The position numbers were made by a program, and so were the translations under genes. 32,000 bases of DNA from a virus. The stretch covers positions 31,402-63,401 of IMG/VR virus record IMGVR_UViG_3300033144_005525; one strand, 5' to 3'. How positions within the stretch are numbered: the stretch's first letter is position 1; each line of letters opens with the position of its first letter. The notes under the pieces were generated by a model. It did no database searches. It was not told where the DNA came from and saw only the letters and a list, made by a program, of their open reading frames with translations. Shown piece by piece: positions 8,735-10,114 of the stretch.

Positions 8735-10114
8735 ATGTCCGCCACCCTGAACAAGACCGACCTCACAGGAGGCAACAACAAGTTCTACCAGATCGAAGGA
8801 CACGAAGCGGACGGAGAGTTCAGGCTCTACTCCTGCTACGGACGTGTCGGACATTCCGGTGTCGAGGAAGAAAGGATTCCAGAACAAGACATCGATTCTT
8901 TGAAAGCTGCGTTCGACACTCTCAAATCCTCCAAGATGAGCAAACGCAAAGGCTACTCGGAGGTGCAGATGGCATCTACGAGGGTGGGCTCAACTGAAGG
9001 CAACAAGAAGATTCTGTCGGATGACATCAAGAAGGAGAACCTCGTTGTTACTGACGCCAAAGGAAAGGGAGATACTAAGGCAAGGCTTCAACTGGACTCA
9101 GGCGTATCAAGACTGGTTACTCGGCTATATGAAGAAGCTGGAGCCGCAGTTCGTAGTTCACTCTCTGGCAGCCTCCAGACAACTGAAGAGAACCCGCTCG
9201 GAACTCTTACGCTCACTCAGATCGAGAGCGGGAGGTCTGTCCTCCAGGACATCCAGAAACTGTTGACCAAGAAGCCCAAGCTTCAGGGCTCCATCCACCG
9301 GGACATATTGGACCTGTCCAATCAGTTCTATTCATCGATCCCACAGACCATGAGCAAACGACCAACGTCCAAGGCAGGGAAGAAGGCAATGGATTCTTGG
9401 CTTCAATCCATGGCGTTGAACAACGACATCGTCCTGGATGAGAAAGAGGACCTGCTCAAACTGCTGTCAGATGTCCAAGGTATGGTGGGTGGATTCGCAA
9501 CTACCGATGCGGATAAGAGGTATGCGGACATCGGCTGTGAGTACATCCCCCTCGAGAAGGGTGGTCCCAAGTTCAGAAAGGTCGAGAAGTTCATGCAGTC
9601 CACTAGATCCCGCCATCACGGGTGGGGAGTGGAAGTCGTGAACATCTGGGGGATGTCGGTCAAAGGGCAGAAGTCCAAGCACGTTGGGACCATGAAGAAG
9701 GTCGGCAACGTCAAACCTCTGTTCCATGGATCTCGTAGCGCCAACATCTTGGGTATCTGCAAGAGCGGGCTGCTGATGCGTCCCCCCGGCGTCTACATCA
9801 CCGGAAGTATGTTTGGCAACGGACTCTACTTTGCTGACCAGAGTTCCAAGTCCGAGCAGTATTCAACCTCCAGATTCGGTGGAGGCGGCAGTAGAAGTCA
9901 CACCTACTTCCTTTTCGTAGTCGATGTCGCTCTGGGCAAAGTCAAAAAGTACGAGAGAGCTCAGATGCACTTGTCCGAACCACCGGGTGGGTATCACTCA
10001 GTCCAGGGAACAAAAGGGTACTCACTTCTACACAACGAATTCATCATCTACAGCCTCGGTCAACACATCATGCAGTATCTGATCGAGTTCAAACCGAAAG
10101 GAAATCATTGGTGA
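8735..10114 (+). CDS. poly(ADP-ribose) polymerase-like protein (WGR + helical + PARP catalytic domain)
   Basis: WGR-like NKFYQIEGHE...YSCYGRVG. Catalytic LFHGSRSANILGI (His), GNGLYFADQSSKSEQY (Tyr) and LLHNEFIIY (Glu) align with the PARP1 H-Y-E triad. GAGG SD before the ATG at 8735. Confidence 0.85.
   Translation: MSATLNKTDLTGGNNKFYQIEGHEADGEFRLYSCYGRVGHSGVEEERIPEQDIDSLKAAFDTLKSSKMSKRKGYSEVQMASTRVGSTEGNKKILSDDIKKENLVVTDAKGKGDTKARLQLDSGVSRLVTRLYEEAGAAVRSSLSGSLQTTEENPLGTLTLTQIESGRSVLQDIQKLLTKKPKLQGSIHRDILDLSNQFYSSIPQTMSKRPTSKAGKKAMDSWLQSMALNNDIVLDEKEDLLKLLSDVQGMVGGFATTDADKRYADIGCEYIPLEKGGPKFRKVEKFMQSTRSRHHGWGVEVVNIWGMSVKGQKSKHVGTMKKVGNVKPLFHGSRSANILGICKSGLLMRPPGVYITGSMFGNGLYFADQSSKSEQYSTSRFGGGGSRSHTYFLFVVDVALGKVKKYERAQMHLSEPPGGYHSVQGTKGYSLLHNEFIIYSLGQHIMQYLIEFKPKGNHW

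Follow-up and report, generated by a model that had tools for sequence, protein, structure and literature searches.

Does a large phage encode an intact poly(ADP-ribose) polymerase (PARP), and would such an enzyme respond to nucleic-acid breaks and synthesize polymers? This question is raised by a 32,000-nt stretch of viral DNA (the window; positions 31,402 to 63,401 of IMG/VR record IMGVR_UViG_3300033144_005525), in which a long plus-strand open reading frame (ORF) ending at 10114 in the six-frame ORF list codes for a PARP-family protein. An earlier note on this DNA had described a eukaryote-type PARP at 8735-10114 with a WGR domain and an intact H-Y-E catalytic triad, from which the capacity for polymer synthesis was deduced. 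Our analysis indicates that the gene almost certainly encodes a genuine and intact phage-borne PARP-family enzyme. Its likely activation and product, and the alternative explanations of its function, are evaluated below.

Gene coordinates, domain organization, and conservation of the phage PARP

The PARP gene occupies 8675..10114 on the plus strand, starts with GTG, and encodes 479 amino acids plus the stop codon. The previously reported end at 10114 was correct; the start at ATG 8735 was 60 nt too far downstream. Three features point to GTG 8675. The relatives (473-481 amino acids) have the N-terminus MK[IL]xSQxFGTxxFPxxYDVV (e.g. MKIKSQRFGT..FP..YDVV), which corresponds to VKIRSQRFGTNDFPSQYEVV of the window read from GTG 8675, in agreement with the length of the relatives (~480 amino acids). 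A Shine-Dalgarno-like sequence, AAAGAGGTG (8660..8668, plus strand), lies 6 nt upstream of this GTG, and the GTG overlaps the stop codon of the upstream ORF as GTGA. A start at 8735 would omit 20 residues, which constitute the first WGR strand region.

Pfam searches of the protein matched only PARP, PARP_reg, and WGR, and all three matches, whose search the earlier note had suggested as a check, exceeded the curated cut-offs: WGR (PF05406; E 3.4e-10, 40.3 bits vs a cut-off of 22), PARP_reg (PF02877; E 1.6e-12, 48.1 bits vs 26.8), and the PARP catalytic domain (PF00644; E 5.1e-32, 111.4 bits vs 26.7). The WGR domain (8675..8968, plus strand; amino acids 1-98), which also aligned with the WGR domains of PARP2, PARP3, and PARP1, contains YGRVG (Y55-G56-R57), the GGNNKFY strand (G33-Y38), K87, and K92-G93-Y94. 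It is followed on the same strand by a poorly conserved variable linker that is predicted to be disordered (8969..9094; amino acids 99-140), by the HD/PARP_reg domain (9095..9535; amino acids 141-287), which was delimited by Pfam and by alignment to the HD of PARP1 and PARP2, and by the ART catalytic domain (9536..10111; amino acids 288-479), which was defined by Pfam PARP, alignments, conservation counts, and Foldseek.

All motifs quoted in the earlier note were found and aligned with PARP1. They start at amino acids 35 (NKFYQ), 55 (YGRVG), 349 (LFHGSR), 383 (GLYFAD), 390 (SSKS), and 451 (LLHNEF). HMMER paired the catalytic motifs residue for residue with LWHGSR (H862), GIYFAD (Y896), VSKS (K903), and LLYNEY (E988) of human PARP1. 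The triad is thus H351 (codon 9725-9727), Y385 (9827-9829), and E455 (10037-10039), all on the plus strand. In an alignment of 119 near-full-length relatives, on which all conservation counts given here are based, H351, G352, S353, Y385, F386, A387, S391, K392, S393, Y396, and E455 were invariant (119/119). The HD motif NPLGTLTLTQI, the counterpart of PLGKLS/T..QI in PARP1 and PARP2, was also invariant. This alignment shows strong purifying conservation of the PARP across a large phage clade. A resemblance of the C-terminal Trp to the Leu-Trp end of PARP1 and PARP2 was considered and dropped since this residue is not conserved (W in 20, Y in 54, and R in 32 of 119).

A search of PDB sequences with the single query gave human PARP1 WGR-HD-ART (2e-33), PARP2 (1e-30), PARP3 (1.7e-20), and PARP4 (1.8e-19); the family profile gave PARP2 (2.5e-47), PARP1 (2.2e-45), PARP4 (2.9e-29), and PARP3 (1.7e-26). 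We also predicted the structure with AlphaFold2 using 76 sequences (mean pLDDT 80.2, pTM 0.76). The predicted fold, WGR-HD-ART, matched that of PARP1 and PARP2, with full-length DNA-bound PARP2/PARP1 structures as the Foldseek matches of the model in PDB (6x0l_P, 4dqy_C, and 7s6m; E 1e-27 to 1e-29, TM 0.61-0.73). In this model, the WGR domain consists of four strands, a helix, and one more strand (pLDDT 80-95), and the HD forms a helical bundle (amino acids 142-286). Low confidence was confined to the linker (amino acids 100-136, with pLDDT <50 at 100-104 and 112-136), one HD loop, and a Gly-rich loop (401-406).

Neither a non-acidic third triad residue nor a toxin ART family was found (Glu455 was invariant and aligned with PARP1 E988; Pfam, PADLOC, and NCBIfam scans), and no mono-ART toxin family was matched; the refuting checks named in the earlier note thus left the identification as a PARP in place. 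NCBIfam and PADLOC scans, which covered the protein and its neighbors, gave no match for the PARP at all; therefore, it is not part of a catalogued defense system.

Putative break-sensing residues of the WGR domain

In human PARP2, W151 stacks on the 5′ ribose, and R153 and N127 contact the 3′ side and probably pass a signal on to the catalytic domain. Backbone contacts are made by Y132, K179, and K183, and the 5′-phosphate is read by K130, K183, and Y201 (PMC6294510). The equivalent positions of the phage PARP were assigned by HMMER alignments. PARP2 N128, N129, K130, and Y132 correspond to N34 (118/119), N35 (119/119), K36 (119/119), and Y38 (118/119), respectively. R153 corresponds to R57 (119/119), W151 to Y55 (115/119), and K183-T184 to K87-M88, which is K87-T88 in most relatives with K87 in 119/119. 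The position of N127 is occupied by G33 (119/119), and PARP1 has Gly here, too. Within the motif that gives the domain its name, G56, R57, V58, and G59 were invariant, and the first position was Tyr in 115, Phe in four, and Trp in none of the 119 relatives.

Y94, which lies within K92-G93-Y94 just before the last WGR strand of the model, was also invariant (119/119) and most likely corresponds to PARP2 Y201. This assignment agrees with the report that G92/Y93 of CdPARP from Clostridioides difficile CD160 are among the most strongly co-evolving WGR positions of bacterial PARPs (PMC5966428). The conserved contact residues support a putative break-gated enzyme, possibly preferring 5′-phosphorylated ends.

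Acceptor site and likely reaction product

The intact Glu had been taken to imply poly- rather than mono-ADP-ribosylation. This argument is insufficient on its own since PARP3 and PARP4 have the H-Y-E triad and yet catalyze mono-ADP-ribosylation only (PMC10711553). According to a structural study of PARP4, the cause is a degraded acceptor site, with K903 missing from PARP4, H826 from PARP3 as well as PARP4, and M890 substituted (PMC10711553). We mapped these acceptor-site positions through HMMER alignments and counted them among the relatives. The equivalents of PARP1 H826, M890, and K903 are H315 (kept in 119/119), M379 (117/119), and K392 (119/119), respectively. By these acceptor-site criteria, the enzyme resembles PARP1 and PARP2. 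Polymer synthesis is plausible because these three residues are conserved, so that the potential claimed earlier would rest on this basis and not on the Glu alone.

The position of PARP1 Tyr986 is occupied by His453 in 119/119 relatives. PARP1 Y986H retains strong auto-modification and makes poly(ADP-ribose) (PAR) with 16-fold more branching (PMC7544232). Among bacterial enzymes, HaPARP of Herpetosiphon aurantiacus and CdPARP make PAR in vitro, and HaPARP requires DNA (PMC8120803); CdPARP is highly active in vitro (PMC5966428, PMC8120803). We estimate that oligo- or poly-ADP-ribosylation by the phage enzyme has a somewhat better than even chance of being its activity.

Gene block containing the PARP gene

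As the earlier note had said, the PARP gene follows thyX and a tiny membrane ORF and precedes a winged-helix protein with an Asp/Ser-rich tail; Pfam and PHROG matches and structure prediction bore out this arrangement. The first gene of the block, thyX (7657..8508, plus strand), encodes a ThyX-like thymidylate synthase (Pfam Thy1, 3.5e-15; PHROG thymidylate synthase, 1.1e-65). This ThyX is divergent; its Pfam match is limited to profile positions 60-190, and its score is under the NCBIfam equivalog cut-off. The TGA stop of thyX (8506-8508) overlaps GTG 8505 of the next ORF (8505..8678, plus strand), which encodes a 57-amino-acid single-pass membrane protein with one hydrophobic helix, FLLGLFAAVIVLLIALAFY, and whose stop overlaps the PARP start. 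This small ORF was called identically in a sibling contig (L012) and was not detected in more distant relatives. The fourth gene encodes a 223-amino-acid protein (10111..10782, plus strand), with a GTG start overlapping the PARP stop. GTGA start/stop overlaps thus join the four genes at 8505-8508, 8675-8678, and 10111-10114, which suggests that this block with GTG starts is translationally coupled.

The 223-amino-acid partner has an N-terminal winged helix (a weak ArsR/SmtB match, 1.6e-4), a second helical or winged domain with the invariant core MCRPDNMPTLC...FSAFD...ETGTVHVGGKDVAKIDHE...VHD, and a C-terminal part composed of an acidic Asp/Ser-rich linker of variable length and an invariant YDGSSSL end. 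The linker and YDGSSSL recall the acidic tail and terminal docking motif of SSB. Many gene callers begin this protein at the internal MCRPDNMPTLC; the upstream winged helix is still conserved at the protein level. The partner adjoins or lies near the PARP gene in seven contigs (L001-L007) whose PARPs are 60-72% identical to that of the window. It carries no Pfam annotation and has 23 database relatives, and a 100%-identical copy occurs on a 191-kb JGI contig. The possibility that the partner is a hidden eraser was rejected; its AlphaFold2 model (pLDDT 82) matched only winged-helix regulators and tandem winged-helix proteins in Foldseek (best E about 2e-3), and no macro, PARG, or ADP-ribosylglycohydrolase (ARH) fold was found.

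The sibling contig L012 (JGI 3300033388, 4.4 kb) shows 99.97-100% DNA identity to the window and differs by two missing segments: 112 nt in thyX (window 8279-8390; frameshift) and 159 nt, in frame, in the PARP gene (window 8925-9083; amino acids 84-136, including the invariant K87 and K92-G93-Y94). No microhomology was found at the deletion junctions. An intron or intein interpretation was rejected since both window genes are read through and the PARP segment holds invariant WGR residues. Therefore, L012 represents a deleted or misassembled form, and its differences may be natural deletion variants or assembly artifacts.

Relatives and their gene neighborhoods

At least 245 metagenomic relatives (sequence clusters) of the PARP were obtained at E≤1e-5 in a large protein collection; this is a lower bound, with 8000 word-sharing candidates scored. 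The best 120 of these were 57-88% identical to the window PARP, all with the same three Pfam domains. An exhaustive search of cluster representatives returned 3925 at E≤1e-3 and 116 at E≤1e-30, many of which were 410-500 amino acids long with 30-47% identity. A family-pattern scan of 185,579 prokaryotic species genomes, a narrow method, found no relative. The clade is thus not evidently a prophage or bacterial gene, as far as such searches can indicate.

We then compared the surroundings of PARP genes in contigs carrying relatives. In contig L001 (PARP 72% identical; synteny over 8 kb upstream), ThyA (PF00303; 8907-9857) occupies the exact position of the window ThyX, which looks like an in-place non-orthologous replacement. 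ThyX is encoded near the PARP in contigs L005, L006, and L007. The groundwater contig L002 (244 kb; region 1-21428) has its PARP gene within a nucleic-acid repair cluster, which encodes an ATP-dependent DNA ligase, two RtcB proteins, an RNA ligase, RlaP, and a metallophosphatase. This region also encodes two AcrVA2-like proteins, a response-regulator receiver, and a sigma-70 region-4 protein. RNA ligases and a DNA ligase are found near the PARP in contig L009. In the wider family, contig L008 (PARP 47%) encodes NUDIX and NAMPT (5811-8146), GMP reductase, and RNA ligase, contig L010 (PARP 48%) encodes NAPRTase (20100-21320), and contig L011 (PARP 37%) encodes ADP-ribosylglycohydrolase (PF03747, E 5.5e-51; 19805-20953) 8.4 kb from the PARP. 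In these three contigs, the NAD+ salvage genes or ARH lie within 2-9 kb of the PARP gene, which points to a linkage of writer, eraser, and NAD+ recycling in some members of the wider family. An IMG/VR search with the L011 ARH returned the query contig alone.

Nucleotide supply, nucleic-acid repair, and NAD+ salvage are a recurring neighborhood theme in the wider family. Circumstantially, these neighborhoods fit an enzyme of nucleic-acid metabolism better than a host-shutoff toxin.

A further gene was noted in contig L007 (IMGVR_UViG_3300005535_000017, 210 kb). About 7 kb from its PARP gene (a 62% identical relative), positions 365-3157 encode a 931-amino-acid protein with a Major Vault Protein shoulder match (PF11978, 83.6 bits, E 1.4e-23), which may be an SPFH-like domain only. 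Eukaryotic PARP4 is the vault-associated PARP. The vault-domain protein has no counterpart in the window.

Phage origin of the window

The best explanation for the source of the window is an uncultured large tailed phage (about 190-240 kb). A tRNA array with HNH endonuclease genes occupies 20477..29340 on the minus strand. ARAGORN predicted 35 tRNA genes on this strand (20477-29027) for 18 amino acids, Ala and Trp not being seen, and Rfam supported 26 tRNAs at the gathering score, with one at 29268-29340 that is additional to the ARAGORN set. At least two HNH genes lie among the tRNAs, including 21641-22228 on the minus strand (HNH and HNH_5, E ~1e-14), with matches to many PHROG HNH families, and contig L007 has a homologue (44% identity). 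Many of the mechanically called ORFs of the array lie over tRNAs and probably are not real genes. The other recognizable window genes encode ThyX, a PHROG 'DNA topoisomerase', a phosphoesterase, an amidase, a C92 peptidase, a sigma-70 region-4 protein, and a phage zinc-finger protein.

PARP relatives were located on viral contigs of IMG/VR (73-210 kb) and on metagenomic contigs (up to 244 kb), including a groundwater sample. When 25 kb of the window was compared with 50,697 phage genomes by megablast, nothing matched; thus, this set contains no cultured phage that is close at the DNA level. Additionally, tblastn of a 338-amino-acid ORF (1771-2787) against phages gave no match.

Comparison with known PARPs and ADP-ribosyltransferases

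Human PARP2, the C-terminal module of PARP1, and PARP3 share with the window PARP the domain order, the predicted fold with Foldseek TM values of 0.66-0.73, and the H-Y-E triad. PARP1 and PARP2 have the same acceptor-site His, Met, and Lys, and the WGR contacts of PARP2 and PARP3 made by Arg, Asn-Asn-Lys, and Tyr are also present. In contrast, the identity to human PARPs is only ~23-26%, and the window PARP has no zinc fingers, BRCT domain, or basic N-terminal tail. It also has YGR for WGR, Gly at the position of PARP2 N127, His at that of Tyr986, and no ~40-residue loop before the catalytic Glu, and its setting would be a bacterial cell in which PAR readers and HPF1 are not known.

The label 'eukaryote-type' is not the best description since the protein agrees with bacterial PARPs in its YGR motif and its H-34-Y-70-E spacing. 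The spacing of PARP1 is H-34-Y-92-E, whereas that of CdPARP (H322/Y359/E428) is 37/69 (PMC5966428). YGR is predominant in bacterial PARPs, and G92/Y93 of CdPARP resemble G93/Y94 of the window PARP (PMC5966428). According to published descriptions, HaPARP and CdPARP have WGR-PARP_reg-PARP_cat in ~430-480 amino acids, as does the window PARP. These two enzymes have cognate PAR glycohydrolases; none was found in the 32-kb window or in the 10-kb flanks of the PARP gene in L001-L007.

The view that WGR-containing PARPs are rare outside eukaryotes is likewise outdated, given the metagenomic relatives above and the following reports. In 2018, 72 bacterial PARPs were catalogued (PMC5966428). PARP genes of Aeromonas phage Aeh1 and Cellulophaga phage phi4:1 were described by Perina et al. 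(2014) (PMC4245714), and Iyer et al. (2021), who mentioned PARPs 'in few jumbo phages', speculated that these act in the manner of phage ARTs but add polymers (PMC7824862). Our tblastn search found PARPs in 16 phage records, six of which cover at least 80% of the window PARP with 26-28% identity; identity was 26-29% over the full-length matches and reached 36% over a partial one. Annotated examples are found in Klebsiella phage vB_KpM_FBKp34 (gp111, QQV91759.1), Xanthomonas phage Xoo-sp13 (QDJ96554.1), and XacN1, and further ones in Stenotrophomonas phages CM1 and RAS14, Cellulophaga phages phi4:1 and phi17:2, and Aeromonas phage Aeh1. The FBKp34 record, 'contains WGR domain; regulatory domain; catalytic domain', describes the layout of the window PARP, and the PARPs of Xoo-sp13, CM1, and RAS14 align over 98% of its length. 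PARP genes of cultured phages also lie near nucleotide metabolism genes, namely anaerobic ribonucleotide reductase in FBKp34 and GMP reductase in Xoo-sp13. The winged-helix/acidic-tail partner is not annotated beside them. BFVD contained three full-length viral structural matches: Bodo saltans virus, a 420-amino-acid entry, and 'Bacteriophage sp.'. Taken at the level of sequence comparison, the window PARP belongs to a deep, populous, metagenome-only clade of the recognized phage and bacterial WGR-HD-ART PARPs.

Two other groups share single traits with the window PARP. Between the 'HSV.G' strand and the catalytic Glu, where the segment is short, PARP4 and tankyrase align without gaps. However, PARP4 is a mono-only enzyme without K903 and H826 equivalents (PMC10711553), both of which the window PARP keeps, and tankyrases lack the WGR and HD that it has. 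T4 Alt, ModA, and ModB are phage NAD+-using protein modifiers in infection (PMC8120803, PMC7824862), as is proposed for the window PARP. No Pfam match of the window PARP to a family of this type was obtained. The catalytic motif of the T4 enzymes is not H-Y-E, and they transfer mono-ADP-ribose to Arg. No WGR or HD domain is known in them.

Proposed mechanism and alternative explanations

During infection, the WGR domain would bind a nucleic-acid break, most likely a 5′-phosphorylated nick or end, with K36, K87, and probably Y94 placed at the 5′-phosphate reader positions of PARP2 (K130, K183, and Y201). Break binding would relieve the autoinhibition by the HD, and the NAD+-consuming ART domain would then modify itself, proteins in the vicinity, and possibly DNA ends. 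The product would probably be oligo- or poly(ADP-ribose) because the equivalents of H826, M890, K903, and E988 are kept, and it would perhaps be short or highly branched because of the His at the Y986 position and the missing loop. Including this mechanism, we hold with moderate confidence that the gene encodes a catalytically competent DNA-dependent-type PARP of a large phage. The enzyme likely marks or manages DNA breaks within a phage program of replication, nucleotide metabolism, and repair, and a role as a constitutive host-shutoff toxin is unlikely, judging from the gene neighborhoods.

Several points weigh against this reading. The segment between HSVQGT and LLHNE has four residues, compared with ~44 in PARP1 ('HSVKGL' to 'LLYNE'), and this segment is also short in PARP4, a mono-only enzyme, and in tankyrase. 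In the WGR domain, the equivalence of Y94 and Y201 rests on the secondary-structure register, and HMMER placed the loop gap elsewhere. N127A abolishes the activation of PARP2 (PMC6294510), and the window PARP has G33 at this position; PARP1 has Gly as well, but it relies on zinc fingers that are absent here. No macro, PARG, ARH, or NADAR domain was found in the 73 window ORFs (Pfam, E≤1e-3), in line with the earlier remark that PARG and macrodomain partners were not seen, and no PAR eraser or reader was found within 10 kb of the PARP in the closest relatives (L001-L007). In a promoter/terminator scan of 6800-12000, sites were no more frequent than expected by chance, and none on the plus strand lay in the operon. 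The role in break management is read from the neighborhoods only, and the literature searched contained no paper with an experimental test of a phage PARP.

The main alternative is a break-activated, PARP3-like mono-ADP-ribosyltransferase, which would attach one ADP-ribose to proteins or to 5′/3′-phosphorylated DNA or RNA ends, e.g. to cap or mark the latter, without forming polymers. The very short acceptor-side loop and the lack of a nearby PAR-degrading enzyme among the window ORFs and the flanks of the relatives speak for such an enzyme, and the triad of PARP3 and PARP4 illustrates that H-Y-E does not guarantee polymerization (PMC10711553). The putative 5′-phosphate set K36/K87/Y94 is also of the PARP2/PARP3 type and not of the PARP1 type (PMC6294510), and PARP1-3 reportedly can ADP-ribosylate nucleic-acid ends (PMC8053099). 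However, the equivalents of H826, M890, and K903, the loss or mutation of which converts PARP1/PARP2 to mono-transferases or typifies PARP3/PARP4, are kept in 117-119 of 119 relatives. Bacterial PARPs with an equally short spacing make PAR (PMC5966428, PMC8120803), and the family profile scores PARP2/PARP1 about 20 orders of magnitude better than PARP3/PARP4. We therefore regard mono-ADP-ribosylation as a serious but minority possibility. A constitutive effector similar to T4 Alt/ModA/ModB, which would take over the host by modifying proteins such as RNA polymerase or translation factors or would drain NAD+, with WGR and HD being vestigial, is considerably less likely. Heavy NAD+ use could be offset by the salvage genes beside the PARP in L008 (NAMPT and NUDIX) and L010 (NAPRTase). 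On the other hand, the invariance of the WGR DNA-contact residues and of the HD core motif in 119 relatives argues for a functional sensor and autoinhibitory module, the neighbors are nucleotide-metabolism and repair genes and not recognizable early host-shutoff genes, and no R-S-E type ART family was matched.

It is very improbable that the window derives from a bacterial chromosome, a plasmid, or a eukaryote or giant-virus contaminant carrying an ordinary cellular PARP, although no virion structural gene lies within the 32 kb and the megablast search was blank. The 35 clustered tRNA genes with HNH endonucleases, the PHROG family matches, the location of relatives on viral contigs, and syntenic ~200-kb contigs made up almost entirely of small unknown ORFs all point to a phage, and the pattern scan of prokaryotic species genomes revealed no relative. 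GTG starts, Shine-Dalgarno sites, and stop/start overlaps point to prokaryote-style translation.

Returning to the break-activated PARP that we favor, a bolder extension, unlikely as a whole, is that the clade runs a self-contained, break-triggered ADP-ribose signaling module. The PARP would sense 5′-phosphorylated breaks in phage DNA made, for example, by host restriction or CRISPR nucleases or by phage HNH enzymes, and would build short, hyperbranched PAR, as a natural 'Y986H' enzyme, on itself and on the co-translated winged-helix partner. The Asp/Ser-rich tail and YDGSSSL of the partner would serve as the acceptor and docking site, and through this modification, factors of repair and replication would be recruited or shielded. 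If true, this would constitute a viral DNA-damage response in prokaryotes, analogous to that of eukaryotic PARP1/2 with histones and HPF1.

Direct evidence of PARP activity in bacteria is scarce. With its at least 245 clusters, strict conservation at catalytic and sensor positions, and conserved partner protein, the clade offers a good entry point to break-activated ADP-ribosylation in bacterial cells during infection. With an invariant His in place of Tyr986 and no acceptor-side loop, the enzyme is a natural experiment on the control of PAR chain length and branching. Genes for thymidylate synthase, ligases, and NAD+ salvage recur near the PARP gene, which suggests roles in phage DNA metabolism that can be tested. 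The view of PARP evolution remains as it was because phage and bacterial WGR-HD-ART enzymes were already known. What distinguishes the present enzyme is the His, the missing loop, the co-translated winged-helix/acidic-tail partner, and the absence of an eraser nearby (the window and the flanks in L001-L007).

Other genes of the window

The gene at 13073-14029 (plus strand) encodes a 318-amino-acid protein that matched PHROG 6247 'DNA topoisomerase' (1.5e-86) and had no Pfam or NCBIfam match. Its product is ~42% identical to 'DNA topoisomerase' or hypothetical gene products of Pseudomonas phages NP1, JG012, and JG054 and of Xanthomonas and Listeria phages; the family seems poorly characterized. 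The gene at 11011-11676 (minus strand) encodes a 221-amino-acid protein with an N-terminal hydrophobic segment and HELLHALGLAH, which corresponds to the metzincin zinc-binding signature HExxHxxGxxH. This product showed a weak match to Pfam Peptidase_M10 (E 0.0027, under the cut-off) and is kept in contig L001 with 53% identity.

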